Below are positions 1 to 47,004 of a DNA stretch of 58,612 nucleotides, one piece after another. The stretch's first letter is position 1; every line of letters begins with the position of its first letter. This stretch comes from an uncultured Candidatus Saccharibacteria bacterium (GTDB lineage Bacteria; Patescibacteriota; Minisyncoccia; Minisyncoccales; Staskawiczbacteraceae), in assembly GCA_964424305.1 (NCBI GenBank), contig CAYRHW010000006.1:1-58612 (forward strand), read 5' to 3'. The notes under the pieces are model-generated. The model did not search any database. It was not told where the DNA came from and worked only from the letters and a program-made list of their open reading frames with translations. The translations under genes and the position numbers were made by a program.

Positions 1-53
1 GCTTGTGGGCGAAAGCCCCGTTCAGCTAAGGATTTCCTAAGCTGAAGGCAAGC
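1..53 (+). ncRNA. 3' end of a structured RNA or structured 3' UTR, cut by the window edge (class not recognised)
   Basis: Nested helices are readable by eye. 1-5 GCTTG pairs with 49-53 CAAGC. Hairpin 7-18 is GGGC-GAAA-GCCC. Hairpin 23-44 is CAGCTAAGG-ATTT-CCTAAGCTG with one A.A mismatch. An intrinsic terminator follows at 65-88. Confidence 0.2.
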
Positions 54-64
54 ACAACAAAAGT

Positions 65-88
65 GCCGTCTTTCGGACGGCTTTTTTG
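65..88. terminator. Rho-independent terminator, usable in both directions
   Basis: Stem GCCGTC 65-70 / GACGGC 76-81, with a T-run at 82-87. The A-rich stretch 55-63 gives a U-run for the minus-strand gene ending at 92. Confidence 0.7.
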
Positions 89-91
89 TTT

Positions 92-559
92 CTATTCGTC
101 TTCAATGCCCTTGGTATATAGTTTTTGCCCTCTTTTTAGGTTTGAGTCTGGCATTACGCTCCAATAAGTGATATTGCCATCGCCCACCCTTCTTAAAATT
201 ACACGAATTTTAATCGGAGAATTGCCAATTATTGCAATAAAAGCCCAATACTCAACATTTTTTGTTTTAGTGAAGCCATCTTTACCCTTTTTACCAATAG
301 TAATAAATTCTTTTCTATATTCTTGAAGCGTTCCCGAATTTCTAATAACTTTAACAGCTAATGGCAAAAGACTAAATTTAAGAAGCTGTTCTCTCTTGTT
401 CCTTTCGTTTCTCGCCGAAAATTGCAGATGATGAAATCCGTCTGAATTAAAAACAATCTGTTCCTTAAAATAAGGATTATAAATACTTTTTTGTGAATTA
501 TATATGTTTTTTGCTTCTTCCTTCTTTTGATTGAAATATTCTATGTTTTCTTCATCCAT
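92..559 (-). CDS. hypothetical protein (155-161 aa)
   Basis: Long ORF from the track (92..577, GTG start). I prefer ATG at 559 because the minus strand reads TGATAATAT + 8 nt + ATG, matching the leaderless promoter grammar seen elsewhere. No family recognised with confidence. Confidence 0.6.
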   Translation of the reverse strand: MDEENIEYFNQKKEEAKNIYNSQKSIYNPYFKEQIVFNSDGFHHLQFSARNERNKREQLLKFSLLPLAVKVIRNSGTLQEYRKEFITIGKKGKDGFTKTKNVEYWAFIAIIGNSPIKIRVILRRVGDGNITYWSVMPDSNLKRGQKLYTKGIEDE

Positions 560-646
560 ATAATCAAATATTATCACTTCTCACTTAAAAAACAACAAAA
601 AACACCCTAAAAAGGATGTCTTTGGTTTTATTCTTACAGTTTAATT

Positions 647-1159
647 TTAGATTTTAGGCTTATCTAATTCTTCAACCTTAAACCCCAATTCAGGAAAAGT
701 AAGGTTTCTCAAGTAAATCCCACCCACCAAAAGGACATCATTCATACTTGCACCAGAATTAAATGCCCCTGTTTTTAATTTTTCAATGACATCAGGACAA
801 TGATTAGGTAAGTCTGCCATTACAGATAGAATTATTGCCTCGGCGTCATAGGGATTGGTAGCACCTTTTTTTCTTATAATTCCCAAAAGAGTTTCTTTCT
901 TGCTATCAACTATTTCTTTTATCCCGCTTTTTTCAAGTATTGAATTACCTCGTTCATTAAGTTGGCGGGGCGAATGAGCAGGTGCGACTCTATCCTGCCA
1001 AAGGTCATTTACCCTTGATTCTATAACAGCGAATCTTTCTCTAATTGGTGCTAAATCATCCAAAATCTGCAATTTTTTCCCAATATAAATTGTGGCACCG
1101 ATAATTGTGGGTATCCCTATTCCTACTATAATGGCGTTTATTGTATTGAGAATATCCAT
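647..1159 (-). CDS. hypothetical membrane-anchored protein
   Basis: 170-aa ORF with a hydrophobic N-terminus (IIVGIGIPTIIGATIYI). No recognisable catalytic motif. Confidence 0.6.
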   Translation of the reverse strand: MDILNTINAIIVGIGIPTIIGATIYIGKKLQILDDLAPIRERFAVIESRVNDLWQDRVAPAHSPRQLNERGNSILEKSGIKEIVDSKKETLLGIIRKKGATNPYDAEAIILSVMADLPNHCPDVIEKLKTGAFNSGASMNDVLLVGGIYLRNLTFPELGFKVEELDKPKI

Positions 1160-1267
1160 ATTTTTATATTTAGCTATTATCTATTTTTATTATACGCCAC
1201 CTTACCAAAAAATAAAAACACTATCAAGCTACAAGGTTTAAGCTTTTCATTTCTACCATCATCAGCT

Positions 1268-1368
1268 CCCAGTTTATGGTTCTAAGCGTGTTGCACAGGG
1301 GGAGCCATCAATTCGTGTCAATTCTTATCAAGAGCCACCTTTTAATTGAGGTGGTTTTTTGATACGAT
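1268..1368 (+). repeat. junction module A (GGTTC box + GGAGCC box + terminator hairpin + T-run + extended -10)
   Basis: GGTTC 1278-1282; GGAGCC 1301-1306; hairpin CCACC 1335-1339 / GGTGG 1350-1354; T-run 1355-1360; TGaTACGAT with -10 at 1363-1368; ATG 1375. 1336-1364 is identical over 29 nt to 5911-5939. 1268-1290 matches 7097-7119 at 20 of 23 positions. Confidence 0.75.
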
Positions 1369-1374
1369 GATTTA

Positions 1375-2139
1375 ATGCAAAAAGAAGAATTAAAAAAACT
1401 TGTGATAGAAGAGTTCGCTGGAGAAAATGCACAAAGCAGGTATTCTGATTTAGCAAAAAATGGTCTTTGGGATAGCGAAGAATATTTTATCTCCGAATAC
1501 TTTAGGGGTGGCAGTAAGGTTTTAGATTTAGGTTGTGGCACGGGTAGAACTACTATCCCACTGGTTGAAAGAGGCTACCAAGTTATAGCCGTAGATATTG
1601 TCCCAGAGATGATTGAAAGTGCGAAGATAATAGCCAAAGAAAAAAATCTAAGTATAGATTATAGGGTGGGTGATGCCACGAAGCTTAATTTTAACGACGA
1701 TTATTTTGACTATTTGTTATTTTCTAATCAAGGGTGGACACAGATTCCCGATAAAGCAGAAAGATTAAAGGCGCTCAAAGAAATGCGTAGAGTTTTGAAG
1801 CCAGATGGAACTTGTATCTTTACTGCTCACCCAAGAGTTTGGTTTAGCGGGCATTTTCTTTTTTGGGTTTGGCAGTGGTTAAGATTTTATATTCTAAAAC
1901 CATTGGGATTTGAAATCGATGAAATAGATTTTGGCGATAGGTTTTTTATTAGAGAAACGGGCGATAGTAATAAAGCATATAAAACAAAACAGTATATCCA
2001 TATTTCATCGGTTGAAGAGGTTAAGAAACAAATAAAGCTATCCGGTTTCAAGGTTATTGAAACCAATGGTAGTTTACAGATGTCTAAAAAGGATATAAGA
2101 AAACATCCATCAGTATTCTATATTTGTAAAAAGCTGTAA
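1375..2139 (+). CDS. class I SAM-dependent methyltransferase
   Basis: Motif [13 protein letters not shown], an acidic residue after beta-2 (VDIV) and post-I/II motifs (LKPDGTCIF). Confidence 0.85.
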
Positions 2140-2268
2140 TAAAACAATGATGAATTGCAGGGTAGGGGGACTAAGCTAAAATAGTAACTGCTTTGTCTGG
2201 GAGGTAATAAGCTCAGGATTAGGGAATGTTTTTTCCCAATTAAATATTCTAAAATCGTCCCACCTAGC

Positions 2269-2312
2269 GAGCAAAATTTCCTGAGGTAATTCCTCGGGTT
2301 TTTTGATATAAT
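2269..2312 (+). repeat. junction module B (partial: GAGCAAAA box + terminator hairpin + T-run + extended -10)
   Basis: GAGCAAAA 2269-2276; hairpin CCTGAGG 2280-2286 / CCTCGGG 2292-2298; T-run 2299-2304; TGaTATAAT with -10 at 2307-2312; ATG 2319, 6 nt later. The GGTTC box is missing. Confidence 0.6.
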
Positions 2313-2318
2313 CTAATC

Positions 2319-3326
2319 ATGGTAATTATTAGTAATTCACTTAAATCAATCAAGGCGACACTAGAAGAGAAGAAACCCTCAAAAGTTGTTTTAATTAGCT
2401 CGGGTTATCTAATATCAAAATTAGATTGGGCAATCACGGAGGTAAAAGAATTAATATCGTCCGATATTAAAGTAATACAGGTTCCCAACGGGGAGGAGGC
2501 AAAAGAGTGGAGTGTTCTAAGGGATCTATTAAATAGTTTCACCGAGAGTGGGTTGGATAGGAAGGGCCTTGTGATTGCTCTGGGCGGTGGGTCAATAACT
2601 GATTTAGTTGGTTTTGCCTCTTCAATTTATTTAAGAGGAATTAATTATGTAAATATCCCGACAACCCTTTTGGGCCAGGTTGATAGTGGCATTGGTGGCA
2701 AGACCGCCATAAATTTTGGAGGTTATAAAAATCAGGTAGGGTCTTTTTATGAACCAATAAATATAATAATTGATGTCAGGTTTCTAAAAACTCTAGATAA
2801 GTCGCAGATAGTGGATGGTTTGGCAGAAATAATCAAAGCAGGTTTAATAAAAGACCCGACAATATTAGATATTCTAAAATCTCATAGCCTCATTGGATTA
2901 AAAGAGAAACCTACCATAGAGGAATTAATTTCTAAAGCCGTTAAGGTTAAGGAATATTTTACTTCTAGGGACCCAAGAGACAGCGGGATAAGACAAATCT
3001 TGAATTTTGGGCATACAGTTGCCCATGCACTTGAGCTTAAATATAAATTAAGTCATGGACAAGCTGTTTTGATAGGAATGATAGAGGAGCTTAAATTTGG
3101 TGAAAAACTGGGAAAAACTAAACCAGAAGTAATAAGCCATCTCAACGAAATTATTAGAGGGTTAGGTATATCTCCCGAGACTAAAGGATTTATAGTTGAT
3201 TGGGGATCTATTTTGCACGACAAGAAAGTTTTAAGAGACGAAATTACTATGCCCATAATTAAAAAGATAGGAGAAGCCGAATTGATTAATATCAAATTAG
3301 ATAAACTACTTTCTCTTGTTAAATAA
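2319..3326 (+). CDS. 3-dehydroquinate synthase family protein (sugar-phosphate cyclase superfamily)
   Basis: GGGSITDLVGFASSIYLRGINYVNIPTTLLGQVDSGIGGKTAINF glycine-rich NAD/phosphate loop. Metal ligands sit in KAGLI, HTVAHALE and SHGQAV. At 335 aa it is shorter than canonical AroB. Confidence 0.8.
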   Translation: MVIISNSLKSIKATLEEKKPSKVVLISSGYLISKLDWAITEVKELISSDIKVIQVPNGEEAKEWSVLRDLLNSFTESGLDRKGLVIALGGGSITDLVGFASSIYLRGINYVNIPTTLLGQVDSGIGGKTAINFGGYKNQVGSFYEPINIIIDVRFLKTLDKSQIVDGLAEIIKAGLIKDPTILDILKSHSLIGLKEKPTIEELISKAVKVKEYFTSRDPRDSGIRQILNFGHTVAHALELKYKLSHGQAVLIGMIEELKFGEKLGKTKPEVISHLNEIIRGLGISPETKGFIVDWGSILHDKKVLRDEITMPIIKKIGEAELINIKLDKLLSLVK

Positions 3327-3379
3327 AATAGCCTTCAACTTAGGTTCGGTAGGCGAATGCCATTATTCTCCCTCATCTT

Positions 3380-3448
3380 GGTTCCAACAACCTTCACGAT
3401 GCGGAGCAAAATTTCCACCTTTTCAAATGGGTGGTTTTTTGGTAAAAT
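3380..3448 (+). repeat. junction module C (33-nt core + terminator hairpin + T-run + extended -10)
   Basis: Core 3381-3413 GTTCCAACAACCTTCACGATGCGGAGCAAAATT is identical to 5008-5040. Hairpin CCACC 3415-3419 / GGTGG 3430-3434; T-run 3435-3440; TGgTAAAAT with -10 at 3443-3448; ATG 3457. An extra GGTTCGGTAG box lies near 3345. Confidence 0.8.
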
Positions 3449-3456
3449 AATTTAAT

Positions 3457-3834
3457 ATGGATAAAATAATCTTTCTAGGTTCTATAATTATTATATTCGA
3501 TTTTATTGGTCTTTACCTCGCCTATTTATACGGTAGGAAAACCAAAATATTTCGCTGGAGCGAGTATTTTGCAATTATTCTGTTTCCCATTATAGGAGTT
3601 CTAGCATTCGCCTATTTAATTGATAGTAAAATTTTAGCATTATTTTTAGTAAGTGCTTGTTTTGGATTTGTTCTCGAATATATATTGGGTTTTGTTTACC
3701 ATAAAACACTTAATAAAAAATTGTGGGAATATAAAAGGCTGAGTGTGGGCGGATATACAAGTTTGCTTTCTATACCAATGTGGGGAATAGGGGGTTGCCT
3801 CTTTTGGTTTTTAAGTAAAATGGTGGGACTGTAG
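3457..3834 (+). CDS. small 4-TM membrane protein
   Basis: 125-aa ORF with four hydrophobic segments. It may be a CmpB-like 'ABC-transporter type IV' family member, recalled from memory only. Confidence 0.6.
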   Translation: MDKIIFLGSIIIIFDFIGLYLAYLYGRKTKIFRWSEYFAIILFPIIGVLAFAYLIDSKILALFLVSACFGFVLEYILGFVYHKTLNKKLWEYKRLSVGGYTSLLSIPMWGIGGCLFWFLSKMVGL

Positions 3835-3871
3835 AACCAAACGAGCCCTAACGTCTTTTCTCTCTTGTCCT

Positions 3872-3952
3872 GGTTCCAACAACCCTCACGATGCGGAGCA
3901 AGGCTGGACACCCATTTGGGTGTCTTTTGCTTTTTAAAGTATGTGGTAATAT
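3872..3952 (+). repeat. junction module D (core + terminator hairpin + extended -10)
   Basis: Core 3873-3901 differs at one position from copies C and E. Hairpin GACACCC 3907-3913 / GGGTGTC 3918-3924 plus a T-run. TGgTAATAT with -10 at 3947-3952. Confidence 0.75.
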
Positions 3953-4008
3953 AAAAGGTGGACAGTATACAGTCGATTGTCCACCTTAATATATTAATTG
4001 AAAAATTT

Positions 4009-4974
4009 ATGAAAACAGTTGAAAAAATAGCTGAATATATACAGAAGAAAAGACAAGCAACGGTTAATGAGCTGGTCGATTACCTTGGGATAAATAGGAG
4101 TGCAGTATATAAGCATATTAACAAAATGCTTAAGCATAATGTCCTGGATAAGGTTGGTAGACCACCTAAGGTTTTTTATTTGCTGAAAGAAAAGCCGGAT
4201 AGGGAGAATGAGATTATCGATTCTGCAAAAAAAGACATAATCGAAAAAAACTATCTTATCATTACTCCCAGCGGAGAAAAAAAAGATGGATTTACGGGTT
4301 TTAATTATTGGTGTAATAAAAATAATCTAGATGTTCCTAAGACTGCGGATGAATATATAAAAACTCTTCTCAAATACAGTAAGTTTAAAAGGGGTGGTTT
4401 AATCGATGGGATGCAGAAATTTAGTAATACATTTAGTGAGGTATATCTAGATAAAATATTTTATCTAGATTTCTATAGCATAGAAAGGTTTGGGAAGACA
4501 AAGTTGGGTCAGCTTCTGCTTTATGGGAAGCAGAGTGGTAACAGGGTGATAATCAAACAAATAGTGGAAGAGATAAAACCTAAAATTAATGCATTGATCA
4601 AGAAATTTAATATTGATGCGGTCGGTTTTATACCATGGACAGTAAAAAGAGATGTCCAATTTATGCGGGAACTCGAAAAACAACTTAATCTCAGTATTAA
4701 AAGTATAAAGATCGAAAAAATCAAAACAGAGATTATCGTCCCGCAAAAAACCCTATCAAAGTTAGAAGATCGTATCGAAAACGCTAGAAAAACTCTTGTG
4801 CTTTCAGAGGGGGGTAAATATAATAACCTTCTTCTTATTGATGATGCCGTGGGTTCTGGAGCAACTTTGAATCAGGTAGCCAAACAGGTAAAAGATAAAA
4901 AAATTGCGAAGAAAGCAGTAGGCCTCTCAATCACGGGTAGCTTTAAGGGATTTGACGTAATTAGTGAGGTCTAA
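4009..4974 (+). CDS. winged-HTH + phosphoribosyltransferase-domain protein (PurR-like architecture)
   Basis: N-terminal wHTH (ATVNELVDYLGINRSAVYKHINKM). C-terminal PRTase PRPP loop (LLLIDDAVGSGATLNQ). The track ORF starts at GTG 3958, inside an 8-bp hairpin (GGTGGACA 3956-3963 / TGTCCACC 3977-3984), so ATG 4009 is preferred. Confidence 0.75.
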   Translation: MKTVEKIAEYIQKKRQATVNELVDYLGINRSAVYKHINKMLKHNVLDKVGRPPKVFYLLKEKPDRENEIIDSAKKDIIEKNYLIITPSGEKKDGFTGFNYWCNKNNLDVPKTADEYIKTLLKYSKFKRGGLIDGMQKFSNTFSEVYLDKIFYLDFYSIERFGKTKLGQLLLYGKQSGNRVIIKQIVEEIKPKINALIKKFNIDAVGFIPWTVKRDVQFMRELEKQLNLSIKSIKIEKIKTEIIVPQKTLSKLEDRIENARKTLVLSEGGKYNNLLLIDDAVGSGATLNQVAKQVKDKKIAKKAVGLSITGSFKGFDVISEV

Positions 4975-5007
4975 ATAGGATTATTTTTTATGAGTGGATT
5001 TATCTTA

Positions 5008-5097
5008 GTTCCAACAACCTTCACGATGCGGAGCAAAATTACCACCCTTTAATTGGGGTGGGTTTTTGATAGAATTAACAATATTAAATGGTAAATA
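5008..5097 (+). repeat. junction module E (33-nt core + terminator hairpin + two extended -10 elements)
   Basis: Core 5008-5040; hairpin CCACCC 5042-5047 / GGGTGG 5056-5061; T-run. TGaTAGAAT with -10 at 5070-5075 and TGgTAAATA with -10 at 5092-5097. ATG 5105 follows 7 nt later. Confidence 0.8.
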
Positions 5098-5104
5098 AAA
5101 AAAT

Positions 5105-5509
5105 ATGAACGCGTATAACTGGTACTCACAACTAATTAAACCAACATGGGCCCCGCCTAGTTGGCTTTTTGGGCCGGTGTGGACGGTTTTGTATGCGATT
5201 ATCGTGGTTTCTTTTGGTGCCGTGTTTTATAAAACATTCACAGGAAAATTTACACGTATTGTAGCGCTTCCTTTTATACTCAATCTCGTTTTTAATTTCG
5301 CCTTCACGCCATTGCAGTTTGGGCTGAGAAACAATCTTCTCGCCACGATTGATATTTTGCTTGTTCTGGGCACTCTCGTCTGGGCGCTCTACGCAATCTG
5401 GCACGTTTCGTCCGGTTTGCGCTGGGTCGTCTATGCTAACATCCCCTACTTACTCTGGGTTTCGTTTGCGACCGTTTTGCAACTGACAATCACGTATTTA
5501 AATAAGTAA
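5105..5509 (+). CDS. tspO: TspO/MBR family tryptophan-rich sensory protein
   Basis: WYSQLIKPTWAPPSWLFGPVWTVLY signature and a Trp-rich C-terminal half. At 134 aa it appears to lack the first TM helix of canonical 5-TM TspO. Confidence 0.85.
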   Translation: MNAYNWYSQLIKPTWAPPSWLFGPVWTVLYAIIVVSFGAVFYKTFTGKFTRIVALPFILNLVFNFAFTPLQFGLRNNLLATIDILLVLGTLVWALYAIWHVSSGLRWVVYANIPYLLWVSFATVLQLTITYLNK

Positions 5510-5510
5510 T

Positions 5511-5852
5511 ATGCGCGTATGGGATATACATCCAAAACATTTGTGTCGAAAGCATTTGCTCGCCGAGCATCGCGAACTTCACGGACTTTGGAATATTTTA
5601 ACTAAACATAATGGCAGGGGAGGGTATTCGCGCCACCCGGAGACCTTGCGCTGGGTTGGAAAACAAAAAGCTCTCTATCTGCGACATGAGGTGCTCGTAA
5701 AGGAATTCGCTCGCCGTGGATACCAGCATCGCACTCTGCTTGATAAAAAATTCGCCACAGGTTCCGGAAGTCAGCGCGTATTCGTCAATACTATTGGTGA
5801 ACAGAAGGTGATTTTGAAACAAAAGCCTTGCGAGTGTCTATTGCATGTCTAG
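5511..5852 (+). CDS. pyrimidine-dimer DNA glycosylase (DenV/Pyr_excise family)
   Basis: MRVWDIHPKHLCRKHLLAEHRELHGLWNIL...HPETLRW pattern typical of the family. It starts 2 nt after the tspO stop. Confidence 0.75.
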   Translation: MRVWDIHPKHLCRKHLLAEHRELHGLWNILTKHNGRGGYSRHPETLRWVGKQKALYLRHEVLVKEFARRGYQHRTLLDKKFATGSGSQRVFVNTIGEQKVILKQKPCECLLHV

Positions 5853-5856
5853 TCGG

Positions 5857-5951
5857 GGTTCGTAGCGGACAGTTGGCGGATCAAGATTCAGCGTTCGGAG
5901 CCATCAAAAGCACCTTTTAATTGAGGTGGTTTTTTGATAATATGGGATAAT
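5857..5951 (+). repeat. junction module F (GGTTC box + GGAGCC box + terminator hairpin + extended -10)
   Basis: GGTTC 5857-5861; GGAGCC 5897-5902; hairpin CACC 5911-5914 / GGTG 5925-5928; T-run 5930-5935; TGaTAATAT with -10 at 5938-5943 and TGgGATAAT with -10 at 5946-5951. There is a 29-nt identity with module A. Confidence 0.75.
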
Positions 5952-5962
5952 ATATAAAACTT

Positions 5963-6481
5963 ATGAAAAAAATATTAACATTTCTAATAATCGTTTTTCT
6001 GATAATAGTTTTATTATTCGTTGGTTGGTTTCTTTTCTTTCAAACAAAAAAGGGAACGAACGAAGAACAAGTAGCCGGTAATAAATATAGGAACGATTAT
6101 TATAAGTTTGAAATGATATATCCTCTTGATTGGAAAATGTCGACGATTGCAACAAAAACTCCACCATACTCTGTGTTGTTCACCATTAAATCAGAGAAAG
6201 ATGCGGATGAAGAAGTAAATATAGATTGTATCGATGGACAAGTCACTCTAACAGATTATTTTGGCGCAGGTGAAATTCAAAGAAGTTTGGTCGTTGATAT
6301 TACCTCAAATGGTTTTATATGGAAAAAGGTACGGAGACCCACTCATCCCAGGGATTTGTATGCCTTTATACAGAATAATGGGAAAACCTATGTTTTCTCC
6401 TATTCCTGTAACGAAAGTAATGGAAAAAATATTGATGCAAGATTCGAGCAAGTCATTTCTAATTTTAAGTTTTTACCATAA
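5963..6481 (+). CDS. membrane-anchored or secreted hypothetical protein
   Basis: 172-aa ORF with an N-terminal hydrophobic anchor (ILTFLIIVFLIIVLLFVGWFLFF). Confidence 0.65.
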   Translation: MKKILTFLIIVFLIIVLLFVGWFLFFQTKKGTNEEQVAGNKYRNDYYKFEMIYPLDWKMSTIATKTPPYSVLFTIKSEKDADEEVNIDCIDGQVTLTDYFGAGEIQRSLVVDITSNGFIWKKVRRPTHPRDLYAFIQNNGKTYVFSYSCNESNGKNIDARFEQVISNFKFLP

Positions 6482-6515
6482 ACCAGGTTTTAATATCATC
6501 TTTGACCCTTATTTT

Positions 6516-6577
6516 GGTTCCAACAACCCCCGATGCAGAGCTAATAAAATCGCTTTCTGGCGATTTTTTGGTAGAAT
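6516..6577 (+). repeat. junction module G (diverged core + terminator hairpin + extended -10)
   Basis: GGTTCCAACAACCCCCGATGCAGAGC 6516-6541; hairpin TCGC 6550-6553 / GCGA 6560-6563; T-run 6564-6569; TGgTAGAAT with -10 at 6572-6577. Confidence 0.7.
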
Positions 6578-6610
6578 GAAATAATATTATGAACCTAAAT
6601 TTAAATAATT

Positions 6611-6799
6611 ATGCACATCTTTAAAACGTGGACGTTCCGTTGGTGGGAGGTTAGTTTGATAAAATTATGCCTCATTTCTCTCGGCATTATTTTAACCGTC
6701 TATTTTTATGACTATCTCGTCGGTTTATTATGGTTTTGGTGGATACTTTTCATTGTGACCGCAATATATTTTATTACTGGGGCAATAAAAGAAAAGTAG
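6611..6799 (+). CDS. small 2-TM membrane protein
   Basis: 62-aa ORF with two hydrophobic helices. Confidence 0.5.
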   Translation: MHIFKTWTFRWWEVSLIKLCLISLGIILTVYFYDYLVGLLWFWWILFIVTAIYFITGAIKEK

Positions 6800-6904
6800 A
6801 AAAATAGTTTCCCAGATAGCCCAGAAGCTACCTTTTGTTGAAATGGATTTCGGTTGACTAAGATTTTTAGAATTAATAAACTAATATAATAATTATATAA
6901 GAAT

Positions 6905-7060
6905 ATGGTAAAAGGAAATTTCATCGGTGCGGCCATTGTCGCAATAATCTACACGGTTTACATTTTAATTAATCCCTTGCCAATAAAATTGCAAACAGCG
7001 GCAGCATTGGTGATTCTTAACGCCTTGACTATTGTGCTTTTGTCATTTGCATTCAAATAA
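6905..7060 (+). CDS. small membrane protein (51 aa, below the ORF-track cutoff)
   Basis: Hand-translated as MVKGNFIGAAIVAIIYTVYILINPLPIKLQTAAALVILNALTIVLLSFAFK*. It has two hydrophobic segments and fills an otherwise empty + strand gap. Confidence 0.4.
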   Translation: MVKGNFIGAAIVAIIYTVYILINPLPIKLQTAAALVILNALTIVLLSFAFK

Positions 7061-7096
7061 ATTTGCCACCAAAAGCATAATTTTATCATCATTATC

Positions 7097-7172
7097 CCCA
7101 ATCTATGGTTCTAAGCGCGCCTAGCCGGGACTCTCTATATAAGAAAAAAAGACCTTCATCGGGTCTTTTTTG
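7097..7172 (+). repeat. junction module H (GGTTCTAAGCG box + bidirectional terminator), with no + strand gene downstream
   Basis: TATGGTTCTAAGCG 7104-7117 is identical to 1275-1288. Hairpin AGACC 7150-7154 / GGTCT 7162-7166 is flanked by an A-run and a T-run, and also terminates the convergent gene 7156..7902. Confidence 0.6.
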
Positions 7173-7902
7173 CTACGTAAATAATTGTGTGCGGTGTGAG
7201 AGTAAATTTATCAAAATCGGGGGAGAGAATAAGCGGCTCATAGGGATATTTTGCTTTTTCTTCTATCGGCATTCGCGAGGGGTTGGTGGTAGTTTGCTCA
7301 ACGATTTTTGTAATGGCAAAGCCATTTACAGAAAGGGCATTAGTTACTTCTTCGATTGAGAGCTGGGCCTCGCTCCACTCTTTAGTGACATCTTTCGGTG
7401 TTGGAAAAAATTGACTGGGGTGAGTTAGGCAAAAGATAAAAGTTCCACCAGGAATTAAGATAATATTCACCCTCCCCAGGAAGCTTGAGAGAGAGAAATA
7501 GTCGTGGCAGATGAACCCTACGCCATAGCTCGAAAGCGCTACGTCAAATCTTCTGTCTCCGAGAATGGCGGTCAGCTCATTGGCATTGCCACAAAAAAGT
7601 TCAATGGAGACCCCCTCATTAGCAGAGAGAGTTTTTGCTGCCTGGATCATGTCTTCAGAAATATCAATGCCGACTGAGTTTCCACCCCACTTTGCTATGG
7701 TTATGGAGTTTTGAGCTGCTCCACAAGCAATTTCTACAACTCGTTTTCCATTAAGTCCCAGTGGCCCGCCCAGAAGAAGTAGGTCGCGCTCGCCGGGAGA
7801 GAGGTATCCGTAGTGGATATCATTTGTCGAAATTCTAACATTAGTTCTGTAGGTTCTGCAAAAATCGCCGCTCTTCCATACGCTCTCTTCTACCGTTGGC
7901 AT
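7156..7902 (-). CDS. class I SAM-dependent methyltransferase
   Basis: Motif I VVEIACGAAQNS, DISEDMI, and post-I FDVALSSYG. Confidence 0.8.
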   Translation of the reverse strand: MPTVEESVWKSGDFCRTYRTNVRISTNDIHYGYLSPGERDLLLLGGPLGLNGKRVVEIACGAAQNSITIAKWGGNSVGIDISEDMIQAAKTLSANEGVSIELFCGNANELTAILGDRRFDVALSSYGVGFICHDYFSLSSFLGRVNIILIPGGTFIFCLTHPSQFFPTPKDVTKEWSEAQLSIEEVTNALSVNGFAITKIVEQTTTNPSRMPIEEKAKYPYEPLILSPDFDKFTLTPHTIIYVAKKTR

Positions 7903-8038
7903 GTTATTTACTCCCTATAAAAGATCTAATATTAATTTACAACGGGGCGATGAATCTGTCCATATGGGGGTATTTCCCACGATTTTTTGTGGTTCCTTCT
8001 GGCTTGCGAGTTTTAGGTGGACAATATAGGATAAAGGT

Positions 8039-8983
8039 ATGAAATTATTTCGAGCTAAATTTTTTGTCAATGCATTTATCGTCTTATTGCTTCTAGGCGT
8101 CGGCTACTATTATAGGGAAGAAATTGGTAGTTTCCTTAGGGGGATCCAGTATAAGATACAGCCCTGCCAACGGGCAATAACGTATTCCATTGTAGGCCTT
8201 GACCCGCGCTTTGGGTTAACGGAAGAGGAATTATTAAATAAGATTGAGGAAGCCGAAAAAATATGGGAGCTACCAATTGGCAAGCAGTTGTTTGAATATT
8301 CGCCGTCGGGAGACTTAAAGATAAGCCTTGTCTATGATTATCGGCAGAAGGCTACGGATGCATTAAAAAAGATGGGAATTGTTATTGATGACACTCGGGC
8401 ATCCTACGATGCACTAAAAGCTAGGTATGATTCGTTCATTGCCTCCTATGATAGTGCAAAATCACGATTGGACATTTTAATCGCAACCTACACTACAGAG
8501 AAGAATGCTTTTGAAAAAGATGTGAATTACTGGAATAGTCACGGCGGAGCGCCGAGGGAAGAACGTAATGCGTTGGAGCAAAGAAGGATTGATTTAAATA
8601 ATCAAGTCGTAATTATCAACCAAGCCGAAGATTCTTTAAATGGACTGGTCGATAATATAAAATTGACGGAGGTGGTTCTTAACAAATTAGCCGGAGAACT
8701 TAATCTTCAGGTGGGGACCTATAACAAAGTTGGTTCGTCGACTGGGGAAGAGTTTAAAGAGGGGGAATATGTCAGTGATGGGAGCGGAGCGGAAATCAAT
8801 ATTTTCCAATTTAACGACACGAACCAACTTTTGAGGGTTCTTGCTCACGAGCTTGGGCATGCATTGGGATTGGAGCATCTTGATAATCCAAAAGCGATTA
8901 TGTATTACCTTAATGAAGGAAGAAATCAAAAATTGACAGCAGATGATTTTCTGGCCCTTAAAAATGTGTGTGGTATTAAGTAA
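8039..8983 (+). CDS. membrane-anchored matrixin-like zinc metalloprotease
   Basis: HELGHALGLEH (HExxHxxGxxH) followed by a Met-turn (IMYY). There is an N-terminal TM and a central coiled-coil-like region. Confidence 0.8.
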   Translation: MKLFRAKFFVNAFIVLLLLGVGYYYREEIGSFLRGIQYKIQPCQRAITYSIVGLDPRFGLTEEELLNKIEEAEKIWELPIGKQLFEYSPSGDLKISLVYDYRQKATDALKKMGIVIDDTRASYDALKARYDSFIASYDSAKSRLDILIATYTTEKNAFEKDVNYWNSHGGAPREERNALEQRRIDLNNQVVIINQAEDSLNGLVDNIKLTEVVLNKLAGELNLQVGTYNKVGSSTGEEFKEGEYVSDGSGAEINIFQFNDTNQLLRVLAHELGHALGLEHLDNPKAIMYYLNEGRNQKLTADDFLALKNVCGIK

Positions 8984-12320: not shown

Positions 12321-12578
12321 ATGCCAAAAAAAGCAAATTCGGCTTTCATGAAGCCTCTAAAGCTCACTGCTGAATTAGAGGCAGTAGTAGGAAAAGGTCC
12401 TATGCCAAGATCCGAAGTAGTAAAGAAGCTTTGGATTTACATCAAGAAGAATAATCTTCAGGATCCACAAAAGAAAAGAAATATCAAAGCCGATGCTAAT
12501 TTAAAAGTTGTTTTCGGTGGGAAAGCTGTTGTAGACATGTTTGAGATGACAAAGTTAGTTTCTAAACACTTATCCTAG
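12321..12578 (+). CDS. SWIB/MDM2 domain protein
   Basis: LKLTAELEAVVGKGPMPRSEVVKKLWIYIKKNNLQDP...MFEMTKLVSKHL matches the SWIB fold signature. ATG 12321 is preferred to TTG 12300. Confidence 0.8.
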   Translation: MPKKANSAFMKPLKLTAELEAVVGKGPMPRSEVVKKLWIYIKKNNLQDPQKKRNIKADANLKVVFGGKAVVDMFEMTKLVSKHLS

Positions 12579-12600
12579 TCTAGACAAAGTAATACAAAAA

Positions 12601-12634
12601 ATCGTTCTGCCCTGTTGGGGTGAGCGATTTTTTG
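12601..12634 (+). terminator. intrinsic terminator fused to the next gene's extended -10
   Basis: Stem ATCGTTC 12601-12607 / GAGCGAT 12622-12628 with an inner CCC/GGG helix. T-run 12628-12633, then TGtTAATAT with -10 at 12636-12641 and ATG 12650. Confidence 0.6.
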
Positions 12635-12649
12635 TTAATATATACATAT

Positions 12650-13636
12650 ATGAAAACAATCTATCCGGTTAAATTAAAAGTTGGAGACGAAGTCAGGGTT
12701 ATTGCGCCCTCAAGGTCTATGGCGATAATTTCCAAAGAGAACAGGGAGATCGCAAACAAGCGTTTTTTTGACCTGGGACTGAAATTAACCTTTGGAAAGC
12801 GCATAGAAGAGAAGGACGAATTTGTTTCTTCGAGTATCAATTCTCGCGTAGAAGATCTCCACGAAGCATTCCGAGATAAGAATGTGAAAGCCATTATCAC
12901 AGTGATAGGCGGTTTTAACTGTAACCAACTTCTGCGGTACATAGATTGGGACTTGATAAGGAAGAACCCAAAGATCTTTTGTGGTTATTCGGATATCACC
13001 GCCCTCAACAATGCAATATTTGCCAAGACCGGGCTGGTTAACTATTCCGGGCCACATTATTCAACCTTTGGGCAGGAATTGTATTTTGACTACACCCTAG
13101 AATATTTTAAGAAATGTTTGCTCACAGATGCGGAATTCAAGATTGAGCCAAGTGATAGCTGGAGTGATGATGCCTGGTATATGAATCAAAAAGACAGGAA
13201 TCTCGTAAAGAACGAAGGCTTTTGGATTATTAATAATGGAGAAGCCGCTGGCACTATACTCGGGGCCAATGTTGGGACATTTAATTTACTACAGGGGACA
13301 GAGTATCTTCCAAGCCTAAAGGATTCCGTATTGTTTATTGAAGATGATGAAGAATCGTTGCCTCATCATTTTGATAGAGACCTGCAATCAGTTATACATC
13401 TTCCCGATTTCAAATATGTAAGGGGCATCGTTATCGGTAGGTTCCAAAAGACCAGTAAAATTACAAAGGATATTCTAGTTAGGATTATTAAGACTAAGAA
13501 GGAATTAGATAATTTACCCATAGTCGCCAATGTTGACTTTGGGCATACTGCCCCTCAAATTACCTTTCCCATAGGCGGGAAGGCCTCCCTGGAGGTCAAG
13601 GATGGTGGTGCAAAGCTACTTATATCCGAACACTAG
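12650..13636 (+). CDS. LD-carboxypeptidase (peptidase S66, LdcA-like)
   Basis: GYSDITAL nucleophile-Ser motif and a C-terminal FGH(T) His motif. The start is moved to ATG 12650 because the track's GTG 12620 lies inside the terminator stem. Confidence 0.85.
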   Translation: MKTIYPVKLKVGDEVRVIAPSRSMAIISKENREIANKRFFDLGLKLTFGKRIEEKDEFVSSSINSRVEDLHEAFRDKNVKAIITVIGGFNCNQLLRYIDWDLIRKNPKIFCGYSDITALNNAIFAKTGLVNYSGPHYSTFGQELYFDYTLEYFKKCLLTDAEFKIEPSDSWSDDAWYMNQKDRNLVKNEGFWIINNGEAAGTILGANVGTFNLLQGTEYLPSLKDSVLFIEDDEESLPHHFDRDLQSVIHLPDFKYVRGIVIGRFQKTSKITKDILVRIIKTKKELDNLPIVANVDFGHTAPQITFPIGGKASLEVKDGGAKLLISEH

Positions 13637-36721: not shown

Positions 36722-37869
36722 AGAGAATATATTTAGATTATGCAGCAACCACTCCCGTCGACCCTCGTGTTCTTAGGGCGATGGTTCCTTTTTTTACAAA
36801 AAGGTTTGGGAACACAATGTCTCTCCATTCTTTCGGTCAGGATGCAAAATTAGTTTTAGAAGAAAGCCGAGAAAAAGTGGCCAGTTTAATCGGAGCTAAA
36901 TCAGAAGAGATAATATTTACGAGTTCTGCCACCGAAAGTAATAATTTTGCATTAAAGGGATTGGCTTTTGCTAATAAAGATAAAAAACATATCATTGTCT
37001 CTGCAATCGAGCATCCCTGTGTTATAGAAAGTGCTAATTGGCTAAAAAAACAAGGGTATCAAATAACAAGGGTCCCTGTTAATAAATTTGGGCAAGTTAA
37101 TCCGGAAGATGTTAAGAGGGCCATAACCAAAGATACGCTTTTGGTTTCTATTATCCATGCTTCAAACGAGATAGGAACTATTCAGCCAATAGAGAAAATT
37201 GGAAAGATCTGCAGAGAGGCAGGTGTATATTTTCATACAGATGCATCTCAGAGCTTCGGAAAGATTTCCATTGATGTTAATAAGATGAATATCGACTTAC
37301 TTACAGCCAGTGGCCATAAAATATATGGGCCAAAGGGTGTAGGACTTTTGTTTATACGTCATGGTGTAAAAATTGAGCCCTTACTGCACGGAGGAGGACA
37401 GGAAAATGGTTTGAGATCTTCAACTGTGAACATTCCTGCTATTGTTGGTTTTGCCAGAGCAGTTGAAATCTGTAATGAAGAAATGAAAACAGAGGGCGGG
37501 AGATTAATAAAATTAAGGGATAAATTAATAAAAGGGGTTTTAAAGATAAAAAATAGTTATTTAAACGGACACCCAGAAGACAGGCTCCCAAATAATGCTA
37601 ATTTCCGCTTTGATTTTATAGAAGGAGAATCTTTGATCATCCAGTTGGATATGGCAGGAGTAGCCTGTTCTACTGGTTCTGCCTGCTCTTCAATTAAATT
37701 AGAGCCAAGCCATGTTCTATTGGCAATTGGATTAAAGGCGGAACAGGCCCATGGATCATTGCGTGTTTCTCTGGGGCGTCAAACAACAGAAAGTGATGTC
37801 GATTATTTAGTTAAGATTTTACCCGGGATAATTAAACAATTAAGGAGTATTTCTCCATTTGGAAAATAA
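36718..37869 (+). CDS. nifS: cysteine desulfurase (NifS/IscS class)
   Basis: PLP Lys in SGHKIYGPKG and catalytic Cys loop STGSACSS. It overlaps the Rrf2 stop (ATGA). Confidence 0.92.
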   Translation: MKRIYLDYAATTPVDPRVLRAMVPFFTKRFGNTMSLHSFGQDAKLVLEESREKVASLIGAKSEEIIFTSSATESNNFALKGLAFANKDKKHIIVSAIEHPCVIESANWLKKQGYQITRVPVNKFGQVNPEDVKRAITKDTLLVSIIHASNEIGTIQPIEKIGKICREAGVYFHTDASQSFGKISIDVNKMNIDLLTASGHKIYGPKGVGLLFIRHGVKIEPLLHGGGQENGLRSSTVNIPAIVGFARAVEICNEEMKTEGGRLIKLRDKLIKGVLKIKNSYLNGHPEDRLPNNANFRFDFIEGESLIIQLDMAGVACSTGSACSSIKLEPSHVLLAIGLKAEQAHGSLRVSLGRQTTESDVDYLVKILPGIIKQLRSISPFGK

Positions 37870-37870
37870 C

Positions 37871-39457
37871 ATGAAACCAACGAGTGTTTATACAAAAAAG
37901 GTTTTAAGTCTATTTAAAAAACCTCATAACTACGGAAGAATGAAAAATGCAGACGGTATCGGCAGGGTGGGGAATCCAGTTTGTTTACTCCCAGGGCAGA
38001 ATGTTCACATGAATAATGATATGAATGAGATAAACGCAATTTCCAGAGAAGATAGAGTTTTATCTCACGATGGATTATATAACTTTGTTGATAAAATTGC
38101 AGAAAGAAATTACGTCGGAGAAATTTTGGAAGTAAAAAATGGTCTAGGAAAGATCAAATTAACATCAGAGCACCTTGTGTTGGCGATAAAAATTCCCGAA
38201 GGAGATAAATTCTTAAGGACAAAAAATAGGAAAAAATTATCCGTTGGTTGGTATCATATAAATCAACTGGAAAAAGGAGATATGGTTTTATACCCCATAT
38301 TGAAAGAGAAAAAGGATTTAGCGTATTTAAAAATAGATGTCCCCATGGCCAAATGGGATTTTAGAAGTAAGGAGATCCCGAGTAAGGTTCCCGTTAATTC
38401 GGAATTTTTGAGGCTAGTTGGTTACTTTTTGGCAGAGGGGAATATCCAAGATAAGCCATGCAAGACTTACATCTCGTTTTCTTTAAATATACAAGAAAAA
38501 TACATCGTTGAGGATATAAAGAAAATATCAAAAGACTTATTTGGTCTAGATGCGACCTCGAAAGAGAAGAAAAAAACTAAAACGGTCGTCGTGTATCTAT
38601 ACAGCGCGAGATTAGCAAGGTTTTTTAAGCAATTATTCGGTAACGGAGCCGAGCATAAAAAACTCCCTGAGGTTTTTATGAATTTACCTATTAAAAAACA
38701 GGAACATTTAATATGTGGATTGTGGCGGGGTGACGGTTGCGTCAATTTGAATAGGGACGGCGCAAGGGCAGGGTATTCAACGGTTTCTTATAATTTAGCT
38801 CAACAGCTAAAAACACTACTCATTAGGCAAAAGATAGTGCCATCTATTTATAAAGAAAAAGCGAGAGAAATAAATGGAGTTAGACATAAGGAGTCATATA
38901 GGATCCATGTTGGCCAACGGGAATCTTTAACGAGGTTATGCTTAATATTAGGCATAAAATATAAGGCAAAGTCTTATGCTTCAGAGAAATTATGGGTTGA
39001 TGATGATTATGTTTACACCCCAATAACGAAAATTACGAAAAATAAATATAAAGGTAATGTTTATAATCTGGAGGTCAAGGGGTCCCATTCTTTTGTAACA
39101 GAGGCTTTTTGTCTTCATAATTGTGGCGATGTAATGTGGCTATATATCAAAGTCGGCCAAAATAAGAAGAAGCAGGAGATAATAAAAGACATTAAGTTTG
39201 AAACTTTCGGCTGCGTAGCCGCAATATCCACTAGTAGCATAATCACGGACCTAGCCAAGGGGAAAACAATAACAGAAGCCCTAGAAATTACCAAAGATAA
39301 TGTTGTTGATTCTTTGGGGGGATTGCCCAAGATAAAATTCCATTGTTCGGTTTTGGCAGTAGATGCTTTAGCCGAGGCAATTTTTGATTATCTGAAGAAG
39401 AATAAAAAAGAAATACCCGCAAGTTTAAAAAAGTTTCATGAAAGAAACGAAGTCTAA
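37871..39457 (+). CDS. iscU: Fe-S cluster scaffold IscU/NifU, interrupted by a 380-aa intein
   Basis: Exteins GRVGNPV | CGDVMWLYIKV...FGCVAAISTSS...KFHCSVLA carry the three conserved IscU Cys. The spliced size would be 148 aa. Confidence 0.88.
   Translation: MKPTSVYTKKVLSLFKKPHNYGRMKNADGIGRVGNPVCLLPGQNVHMNNDMNEINAISREDRVLSHDGLYNFVDKIAERNYVGEILEVKNGLGKIKLTSEHLVLAIKIPEGDKFLRTKNRKKLSVGWYHINQLEKGDMVLYPILKEKKDLAYLKIDVPMAKWDFRSKEIPSKVPVNSEFLRLVGYFLAEGNIQDKPCKTYISFSLNIQEKYIVEDIKKISKDLFGLDATSKEKKKTKTVVVYLYSARLARFFKQLFGNGAEHKKLPEVFMNLPIKKQEHLICGLWRGDGCVNLNRDGARAGYSTVSYNLAQQLKTLLIRQKIVPSIYKEKAREINGVRHKESYRIHVGQRESLTRLCLILGIKYKAKSYASEKLWVDDDYVYTPITKITKNKYKGNVYNLEVKGSHSFVTEAFCLHNCGDVMWLYIKVGQNKKKQEIIKDIKFETFGCVAAISTSSIITDLAKGKTITEALEITKDNVVDSLGGLPKIKFHCSVLAVDALAEAIFDYLKKNKKEIPASLKKFHERNEV
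37982..39121 (+). mobile_element. intein with LAGLIDADG homing endonuclease, inserted at the first cluster-ligand Cys of IscU
   Basis: Block A CLLPG (Cys1 = 37982-37984), block B LTSEH, LAGLIDADG motifs LVGYFLAEGN and ICGLWRGDGC, and terminal VYNLEVKGSHSFVTEAFCLHN followed by +1 Cys (39122). Confidence 0.85.
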
Positions 39458-46924: not shown

Positions 46925-46933
46925 TTTATATTG

Positions 46934-47004
46934 TCGGGGCACCGAGATTCGAACTCGGAATAAATCCACCCCATGGACTCGTGCTACCATTACACTATGC
47001 CCCG
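46934..47004 (-). tRNA. tRNA-Pro (anticodon GGG), CCA not encoded
   Basis: Hand-folded from the reverse complement. Acceptor CGGGGCA/UGCCCCG with C1-G72 and A73. D-stem GUGU/GCAC. Anticodon stem AGUCC/GGAUU with loop AU-GGG-GU (U33, G37). T-arm CCGAG-UUCGAAU-CUCGG. Total length 71 nt. Confidence 0.88.

Follow-up and report, generated by a model that had tools for sequence, protein, structure and literature searches.

Integron arrays are chains of unrelated small accessory genes in the same orientation, in which every unit carries at its 3' end a conserved element like a recombination site and a single primary insertion site lies at one array end; the junctions are hybrids with a fixed switch point, and close strains differ strongly in content. 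Their attC sites are imperfect inverted repeats (R''/L''-L'/R') of 57 to 141 nucleotides (nt) that fold as a bottom-strand hairpin, and the cassettes are mostly promoterless and expressed from a common promoter. In tRNA-linked islands, such as Islander-type islands and tycheposons, hypervariable accessory DNA starts at a tRNA 3' end, newer elements displace older ones outward, partial tRNA-like sequences lie at old junctions, and integrases (some of them large serine recombinases) and remnants are found at the site; the tycheposon islands of Prochlorococcus are built by repeated integration at a tRNA gene (bioRxiv 10.1101/2020.12.28.424599). Here we describe a gene array with likenesses to both, located at 1257-7171 of a 58.6-kb stretch of DNA (the window, meaning throughout that whole stretch), which comes from the chromosome of a Patescibacteria (candidate phyla radiation) bacterium. 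The array has nine + strand genes in eight transcription units, and its junctions carry a 28-nt core with motifs in common with the 3' part of tRNA-Asn. The region is probably a cassette array built by recombination, and we lean, with rather less assurance, toward an accretion array of site-specifically inserted units, in which the cores are attP-type left half-sites and the tRNA provides the attB-type left half-site.

Arrays of these general kinds, tRNA-linked or integron-like, are already known, and that in the window is closest to the tRNA-anchored islands. The island features listed above recur in relatives of the window, among which (L001 to L038 denote the related or same-strain contigs that were compared) the array abuts a tRNA 3' end in L001, L006, L027, L031, and L033 to L035, and an integrase lies at the tRNA-proximal end in L036 and L038, with a remnant in L026; neither feature is present in the window. 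In contrast to those islands, a unit here holds one gene or a pair, measures 0.3 to 1.1 kb, and lacks any integrase or replication gene, the heads and tails of units are standardized, the repeated mark is a 28-nt mimic with a constant 5-nt expansion rather than a true tRNA fragment, and the window array is detached from any tRNA; compared with the tycheposons, the candidate enzyme is a serine recombinase. The likeness to integrons covers each of the array-level features named above, but there is no IntI tyrosine recombinase and no attC-type imperfect palindrome. The only complementarity is that of GGTTCY with GGAGCC (5 to 6 bp, top strand), and no inverted repeats bound the modules. Moreover, each unit has its own promoter and terminator, with a terminator hairpin and an extended -10 box before it, and the primary site is a tRNA gene with a serine recombinase as the candidate enzyme. 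A further parallel is with cis-mobilizable and integrative mobilizable elements beside integrative and conjugative elements, which are also integrase-less DNA with att-like bounds, arranged in tandem at one site and presumed to move by a recombinase encoded elsewhere; those elements reach several kilobases, occur in small numbers, and have true att repeats at their bounds, whereas here there are at least eight minimal units per array with mimic sites. Targeted full-text searches of the literature gave no description of such arrays in Patescibacteria, with titles on integrons in that group lying outside this scope. A sequence-only reading of the window had proposed a cassette-like array of unrelated genes joined by mosaic modules; what is new beyond it is that the core resembles tRNA-Asn, that homologous arrays are anchored at that gene, and that a serine recombinase family is present at the same site.

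The core consists of GGTTCNAA, 15 nt, and GGAGC, and an alignment of all copies gives a length of 28 nt in 15 of the 17 distinct copies. GGTTC and GGAGC had been taken as separate blocks that are shuffled between junctions; both boxes are real, but they are the two ends of one fixed-length element. A pyrimidine-rich (CU-rich) tract usually lies 5' of the core, sometimes with a further partial box, and the right half of a junction continues after GGAGC with a short A-rich linker, a G+C-rich hairpin, a T-run, and TGnTAnnAT. The last three of these parts are present at the junctions as described earlier, but they are not specific to the array, being the ordinary gene-boundary syntax of this genome and occurring without a core at 12628, 13969, 23883, and 26952. 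Modules are found at every array junction, including two bare-looking ones that also have degenerate cores (2246-2272 and the relic at 6806-6828). The reported repeats hold at the base level: 1336-1364 and 5911-5939 are identical at 29 of 29 positions, 3381-3413 and 5008-5040 at 33 of 33, 3873-3901 has one mismatch to the 3381-3413 block, and 1268-1290 matches 7097-7119 at 20 of 23 positions, including a 14-nt exact run (TATGGTTCTAAGCG). The 32-mer GGTTCCAACAACCTTCACGATGCGGAGCAAAA has three occurrences in the window at three or fewer mismatches, and none in 100 shuffles. We also confirm that the boxes are absent elsewhere, as the core profile matches only at 1278, 3380, 3872, 5008, and 6516, with none in the other 52 kb; the same profile finds no cores outside arrays in about 290 kb of related loci, and none in about 130 kb of chromosomal context around such arrays in relatives. 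A degenerate copy suggested at 7991-8010 has the wrong spacing, and we regard it as doubtful. The array is bounded by cores of a second type (1257-1305 and 7087-7133), which is also seen in L004, and the window has neither an integrase nor an attC-type site, as first stated (Pfam scan of sizeable open reading frames [ORFs] and inverted-repeat search).

We compared the window with about 350 kb of related DNA, all of it in contigs rather than complete genomes. An exact-pattern scan finds the canonical core in at least one of 185,579 species-representative genomes and in at least seven metagenome contigs. In these relatives it always lies between same-strand genes and is mostly clustered, with four copies in L006, at least three in L001, and two in L003. 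The core is 96 to 100% identical between the window and the related contigs, and up to ∼70 to 90 nt of a junction is 83 to 88% identical, with no other resemblance to the window in the core-bearing contigs save one TspO at 33% amino acid identity. The RpoD proteins of the core-bearing genomes are only 73 to 81% identical to each other, and the junctions are therefore far better conserved than the coding sequence.

The related arrays are tied to one chromosomal position. They begin right after rpoD and tRNA-Asn(GUU) in L001, L006, L027, and L031, an array-type continuation abuts tRNA-Asn also in L033 to L035, and the rpoD-tRNA-Asn pair is kept in every relative sampled. The 3' part of this tRNA gene, from the T-loop GGTTCGA to the 3' end, reads GGTTC, 13 nt, GGAGC, and tRNA and cores share a distal motif, (ACA)GGTTC(G/T)A, and a proximal one, SGGAGC. 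The distance from the start of GGTTC to the edge of GGAGC is 23 nt in all tRNA-Asn genes seen, against 28 nt in 15 of 17 cores. The window cores have only GGTTCNA and GGAGC in common with tRNA-Asn and are 5 nt longer. L027 has one core whose 3' part, TCCCGGAGCA, follows its resident tRNA, CCCCGGAGCA. Downstream in L006, L031, and L008 lies a true copy, 16 nt long, of the 3' end of tRNA-Asn, ATCCTACCTCCGGAGC; L008 starts with a tRNA-end scar and not with a tRNA. No true tRNA or tmRNA fragments were found in the window array by ARAGORN or Rfam, and the core exceeds such a fragment by 5 nt and is without the G53-C61 closing pair.

Content at this position turns over between very close strains. 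L006 and L031, whose RpoD proteins are 98% identical, have common flanks of 1.1 kb (left side, 98.3% identity) and 0.45 kb (right side, 98.0%); between the flanks the genes are wholly different and only the junction modules align (78 to 96%), in a different order. Four assemblies (L032 to L035) are 100% identical over 2.7 to 5.8 kb through rpoD and the whole of tRNA-Asn and split at the base after ...CCTACCTCCGGAGC, the GGAGC end, into four unrelated continuations. Indeed, rpoD contigs in the database are often short because sequences diverge right after tRNA-Asn. Modules spread evenly over the genome, with related genomes keeping a fixed gene order, had been named as the observation that would count against a cassette array; instead, the cores are array bound and relatives show gene turnover bounded by modules, which supports the cassette-like reading.

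The two halves of the junctions behave as separate parts. For 39 junctions anchored on GGAGC, with cores and genuine tRNA-Asn ends pooled and a shared right half defined as at least 72% identity over 32 nt, there are 14 junction pairs with a shared right half and unrelated left halves, 74 with a shared core and unrelated right halves, and only 5 in which both halves are shared. The switch point is the 3' edge of GGAGC, and the shuffling of blocks between copies is explained by left and right halves that assort independently around it. Right-half families recur behind real tRNA-Asn genes and, in other genomes, behind cores (Table 1), and the right half of window junction G is 91% identical to the sequence directly 3' of the genuine tRNA-Asn in L034. 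Such sharing is predicted by insertion at the tRNA, because the sequence that formerly followed the tRNA later trails the core of the newcomer. Right-half similarity fades at about the -10 box, and a unit thus comprises a conserved head (linker, terminator, and promoter), a variable cargo, and a conserved tail (CU-rich tract and core).

Large serine recombinases are encoded at the same tRNA-Asn. In L026 the C-terminal two-thirds of such an enzyme is encoded by an opposite-strand ORF that runs into the 3' end of tRNA-Asn; full-length homologues (530 to 560 amino acids; Resolvase, Recombinase, and Zn-ribbon domains) are numerous in Patescibacteria. Both of the two that were looked up (L036 and L038) are convergent with rpoD, with tRNA-Asn between, and have last codons that overlap tRNA-Asn; the continuation in L032 (agtatag) is also of this recombinase type. 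The inserted element of L036 is ∼11.3 kb long and ends in a 28-nt core, aaacaGGTTCGGATGGCGTTTAGTTGGGGGAGC, followed by tgctatcccgag...ctcgggttttt, the right-half family found directly 3' of the tRNA in L033. Integrase-bearing elements and single-gene units therefore have like end structures. No recombinase domain is detected by Pfam in the related arrays of L006, L031, L001, and L027. A viral origin of the core was considered and dropped, as a relaxed core pattern is matched in IMG/VR only by chance inside genes.

The product site is not known to be reused by classical serine integrases, which sit on phages carrying their own attP. Rutherford et al. 2013 (PMC3783163) placed the motif that the zinc-ribbon domain of serine integrases binds at bp 16 to 24 of the attP half-site and at bp 11 to 19 of that of attB, where its distance to the crossover is shorter by 5 bp. 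The sites here resemble these in having two motifs common to the chromosomal and the partner site, with the distal one 5 bp further out in the partner, and differ from them in that the right halves have no matching inverted motif. The 5-nt offset between core and tRNA agrees with the attP/attB spacing rule, which is a matter of consistency and not proof; the tRNA would have attB geometry and the cores attP geometry if the crossover lay a few bases upstream of the GGAGC 3' edge, for which a distance of about 6 to 7 nt is predicted. We suggest, tentatively, that the large serine recombinase family may be the enzyme acting on the array sites.

The accretion model would account for the array as a chain of eight independently acquired same-strand units, entering one at a time at a tRNA-Asn-type site. 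Each unit would bring a head of linker, terminator hairpin, and promoter that stops upstream transcription and drives its own, often leaderless gene, and would leave an attP-type arm as the core at its tail. Every junction would then be a hybrid, in which one unit ends with the left half, the following unit starts with the right half, and the two meet at GGAGC. In relatives, new DNA would insert immediately 3' of tRNA-Asn and push older units outward. The units, being integrase-less, are presumably mobilized in trans and would enter by site-specific recombination, with a serine recombinase acting on the cores. As the window lacks tRNA-Asn, rpoD, and any recombinase, and several of its cores are degenerate, we read its array as a sedentary, partly decayed copy detached from its anchor.

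We note, however, that a number of observations weigh against this model. Anchoring is seen only in relatives, since the window lacks rpoD and tRNA-Asn, including any trace of the tRNA 5' half, and a Pfam scan of its sizeable ORFs reveals no recombinase or remnant. Just one serine-recombinase element (L036) is seen with both ends, and its core lacks the acceptor sequence of the resident tRNA and is not a simple displaced tRNA fragment; an attR scar made of an element arm plus a displaced tRNA end was rejected since the acceptor-like bases mismatch the resident tRNA. The recombinase has no close relative in free viral contigs (32 to 40% identity at best), attP is not seen directly, and the right halves have no inverted symmetry. 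We know of no serine integrases that recombine attP-like with attL-like sites, and repeated insertion would for this reason need a regenerated site still working as attB. Some breakpoints also lie elsewhere than expected: the right breakpoint of L006/L031 is at the terminator hairpin, 20 to 113 nt past GGAGC, and that of L001/L005 is between promoter and ATG. Finally, five same-strain contigs are 100% identical to the window and offer no variant junction of its array, cargo is almost never shared among sampled arrays, and no unit is caught in two contexts.

Homologous exchange alone could in principle produce a similar picture, with modules of 70 to 130 nt serving as portable homology for RecA-type swaps of uptaken DNA or excised circles, and with the 29- to 33-nt direct repeats inside one array causing deletions. 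The perfect direct repeats of 29 and 33 nt in the window, the 78 to 100% identity of modules between genomes, and the breakpoints away from GGAGC are all in keeping with it, and L006/L031 could be a block replacement through the conserved flanks, with the left breakpoint inside the tRNA. Exchange of this type is expected to leave breakpoints anywhere in shared sequence, however, whereas in dozens of pairs the change from one half to the other falls on a single 5-nt box, and four contigs part at the identical base after the tRNA; the fixed 28-nt length, the imitation of tRNA-Asn, and the recombinase family at the same site would remain unexplained, and we consider it unlikely as the full account. 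Still less likely is that the modules are expression signals, the core and CU-rich tract forming a 3' untranslated region element (a stabilizer, processing site, or tRNA-like mimic) and the terminator and promoter insulating each acquired gene, with similarity kept by selection. The position of the core fits such a role: without exception it lies on the coding strand, behind a gene and ahead of an intrinsic terminator, and in L005 (2304-2279) a minus-strand core stands behind a minus-strand gene. GGTTCY can pair with GGAGCC in 84% of cells versus 39 to 66% in slid registers, a longer stem (CGTCGT paired to ACGATG) is possible in composite copies, and an extra hairpin stands at a fixed position in some copies. 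There is nevertheless no covariation beyond column shuffles in 17 cores by explicit pair counts, and none in the composite fold of four composite copies by RNAalifold; folding energies outside the terminators are unremarkable (z-scores of -0.8 to -2.3) and no Rfam family matches. The Rfam search of the window yields only tRNA-Pro at gathering score and nothing credible at E up to 10 in 1-8200, and that of the related loci only tRNAs and one group I intron. The core of junction A has no upstream gene to transcribe it, and confinement to hypervariable arrays and the switch point at GGAGC are left unaccounted for.

We give the least weight to the modules being small non-autonomous mobile elements that carry a terminator and promoter between genes, similar to miniature inverted-repeat transposable elements (MITEs) or to repetitive extragenic palindromic (REP) sequences and bacterial interspersed mosaic elements (BIMEs), which seems very improbable. 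Near-identical modules of ∼75 nt between unrelated gene pairs of different genomes, as at junction C and in L004, would suit it, as would a Y1 transposase of the REP-associated tyrosine transposase (RAYT)-like type near the tRNA-Asn of L026, and REP/BIME sequences also have short conserved blocks in mosaic combinations at gene 3' ends beside terminators. Those sequences, however, are genome-wide, palindromic, in both orientations, and unlinked to gene turnover, none of which is true here: nine junction copies lie within 6 kb, with none in the other 52 kb, and cores are not dispersed outside arrays in about 290 kb of related loci. The modules have no terminal inverted repeats or target-site duplications, their two halves assort independently and a module is therefore not moved as one piece, and the repeats flanking the L026 Y1 gene are a different sequence. 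Other readings were set aside, among them a coding remnant (no conserved peptide in three frames, and copies that differ by indels of non-multiples of 3) and dif/Xer, uptake-sequence, operator, and ECF (extracytoplasmic function)-promoter sites, which lack symmetry or genome-wide spread or have the wrong spacing.

Several further features of the related loci deserve mention. A conserved noncoding piece of ∼110 nt (GGGAGGCGTGGCGAGAACCTAACCTCCC ... GGCAATGTCCTTCGGGCAACTCTTTCGATCCTACCTCCGGAGC) is present in L006 (1727-1823), L031 (7144-7246), and L008 (400-505), ends in the true copy of the tRNA-Asn 3' end, has no Rfam match, and looks like a miniature integrated element or nested scar. A second one (L006 5430-5538 and L005 2140-2250) lies between a core and the next terminator, likewise without an Rfam match, and has long-range complementarity (AAGTTCGA...TCGAACTT and CCCCG...CGGGG). 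The tRNA-Asn of L006 has a group I intron in its anticodon loop (Rfam RF00028, 1439-1643) with an HNH endonuclease ORF at 1174-1491 and is a gene whose counterpart in the 98%-related L031 is an intron-less allele; the anticodon stem of that allele also differs. The Y1 (IS200/RAYT-like) transposase of L026 is 245 amino acids long, and its gene with flanking 38-nt tandem repeats spans 12540-13490, beside the serine-recombinase remnant; it was rejected as the agent of array assembly because those repeats differ in sequence from the cores. Downstream in L026 are RhuM and PIF1-helicase genes, and the DnaG of this contig has a Hint/intein match. The RpoD of L001, a metagenome-assembled genome (MAG), is 73 to 75% identical to those of L006, L027, L029, and L031, and the named database relatives of the L006 RpoD belong to Nealsonbacteria, Pacebacteria, or Paceibacterota; the Candidatus Saccharibacteria label of L001 may be wrong.

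The cargo genes and junctions of the window array are listed in Table 1. Profile searches with Pfam and NCBIfam bear out the earlier gene assignments. The AroB of unit 2 scores 308 against a cut-off of 305 for TIGR01357. The ORF of unit 4 has a possible alternative start at GTG 3958, and its product, a winged helix-turn-helix (wHTH) phosphoribosyltransferase (PRTase)-fold protein, matches PADLOC models of the PsyrT toxin and of retron type III-A PRTase effectors and may be a defense or toxin-type protein. The TspO and glycosylase ORFs of unit 5 are one base apart; an exact look-up of the window TspO gives no record, and the L001 array also holds a TspO, behind a core. Third-position G+C content (GC3) is 0.52 and 0.47 for TspO and the glycosylase (PyrExc), 0.30 for the unit 1 methyltransferase, and 0.27 to 0.33 for most other units, against ∼0.35 to 0.44 in core genes, and these differences in composition support separate origins of the units. 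Together the units would supply accessory functions that include UV repair, TspO, methyltransferases, a PRTase-type putative defense protein, and secreted or membrane proteins.

Table 1. Junctions and cargo of the window array (window coordinates), and right-half families shared with related contigs
Feature	Coordinates	Strand	Description	Basis or remark
Junction A, left half	1257..1305	+	Upstream arm CATCATCAGCTCCCAGTTTAT; 28-nt type-2 core GGTTCTAAGCGTGTTGCACAGGGGGAGC	Opens array
Junction A, right half	1306..1374	+	Linker CATCAA...; terminator hairpin 1334-1354; T-run; extended -10 box TGATACGAT at 1360-1368	
Unit 1 cargo	1375..2139	+	S-adenosylmethionine (SAM)-dependent methyltransferase	Pfam Methyltransf_25/11
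Junction B	2246..2318	+	Degenerate core ATTCTAAAATCGTCCCACCTAGCGAGC 2246-2272; linker AAAATTT; terminator 2280-2298; -10 box TGATATAAT 2304-2312	
Unit 2 cargo	2319..3326	+	3-Dehydroquinate synthase (AroB)	Pfam DHQ_synthase
Junction C	3343..3456	+	Partial upstream box 3343-3361; CU-rich tract 3366-3379; canonical 28-nt core 3380-3407; terminator 3415-3434; -10 box 3440-3448	
Unit 3 cargo	3457..3834	+	CmpB-like membrane protein with four transmembrane segments	Pfam PF06541
Junction D	3846..4008	+	CU-rich tract; core 3872-3899; differing right half; terminator 3906-3924; promoter region	
Unit 4 cargo	4009..4974	+	wHTH and PRTase-fold protein	Pfam HTH_5, weak PRTase-CE
Junction E	5007..5104	+	Core 5007-5034; linker AAAATTA; terminator 5042-5061; -10 box 5067-5075	
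Unit 5 cargo	5105..5852	+	TspO 5105-5509; pyrimidine-dimer DNA glycosylase 5511-5852	Pfam
Junction F	5857..5962	+	Long 45-nt core variant GGTTCG...CGGAGC (5857-5901); linker CATCAAAAG; terminator 5911-5928; -10 box 5935-5943	
Unit 6 cargo	5963..6481	+	Secreted PsbP-like protein	Weak Pfam PsbP match; N-terminal hydrophobic segment
Junction G	6486..6610	+	Partial box 6486-6500; core 6516-6541 (26 nt, 2 nt shorter); linker TAATAAAA; terminator 6550-6563; -10 box 6569-6577	
Units 7 and 8	6611..7060	+	Mini membrane ORFs 6611-6799 and 6905-7060	
Relic core	6806-6828	+	AGTTTCCCAGATAGCCCAGAAGC	Between mini membrane ORFs of units 7 and 8
Junction H	7087..7171	+	Type-2 arm and degenerate core 7087-7133; bidirectional terminator 7144-7171	Array end
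Right-half family 1			L033, after genuine tRNA-Asn: tgaattcccgag...	L006, after core: taaattcccgag...
Right-half family 2			L034, after genuine tRNA-Asn: taataaagtcgcc...	Window junction G, after core: taataaaatcgc...

Junction A has no + strand gene upstream, and at the other end the terminator of junction H is common to a convergent methyltransferase gene (7156-7902, minus strand). The hairpin of junction A is identical to 5911-5939 at 29 of 29 positions, the right halves of junctions B and C match, the core of D has one mismatch to that of C, and ∼70 nt of junction C is nearly identical to an L004 junction between unrelated genes. Extended -10 boxes stand only 6 to 9 nt before the ATG with no visible Shine-Dalgarno sequence (2304-2321, 3440-3459, and 1360-1377), and several array genes are thus probably leaderless. 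Among the same-strain contigs, L011 to L013, from other samples, all end inside the high-GC TspO/glycosylase unit (window 5175-5633), and L009 and L010 end at junction A (1263 and 1382); these ends may reflect population heterogeneity or sequence shared with another genome.

The rest of the window has housekeeping genes throughout, including a ribosomal-protein/EF-Tu operon at 47 to 58 kb, and a sole tRNA gene, tRNA-Pro (46933-47004). The window OtsA has at most 74% identity to any record, and synteny around otsA is uninformative, the two closest relatives (73 to 74% identity) having unrelated neighborhoods; the Lactamase_B-adenylate kinase-tRNA-Pro stretch is syntenic with a Pacebacteria MAG (L029). 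A NifU/IscU-like gene (37859-39457) is split by an intein with a LAGLIDADG homing endonuclease (Pfam NifU_N, LAGLIDADG_3, and Intein_splicing). At the left edge, 1-90 contains a long imperfect hairpin and a terminator (65-81), 3' of a + strand gene that ends before position 1, and L009 reaches ∼500 nt further left than the window.

Bacteria of the candidate phyla radiation have tiny genomes, few recognized mobile elements, and a largely unexplored accessory gene pool. The arrays mark a compact hotspot in them that is recognizable from its 28-nt core, its fixed switch point, and, in relatives, the tRNA-Asn beside rpoD, and at which unrelated genes are exchanged between strains otherwise 98 to 100% identical. 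This hotspot would explain assembly breaks just after rpoD, and the cores are a handle for mining the flexible genes of Patescibacteria. If the link to the serine recombinases is true, the arrays would represent a second way, independent in mechanism, of solving the problem solved by integrons, and would furnish natural attB/attP-like sites for an integrase family that has been little studied. It is conceivable, if doubtful at this stage, that Patescibacteria have an integron-like capture system of integrase-less, self-promoted cassettes with an attP-type mimic of tRNA-Asn, inserted by a serine recombinase acting in trans at tRNA-Asn or at a detached site; such a system would give hypervariable accessory-gene arrays to organisms with very small genomes.

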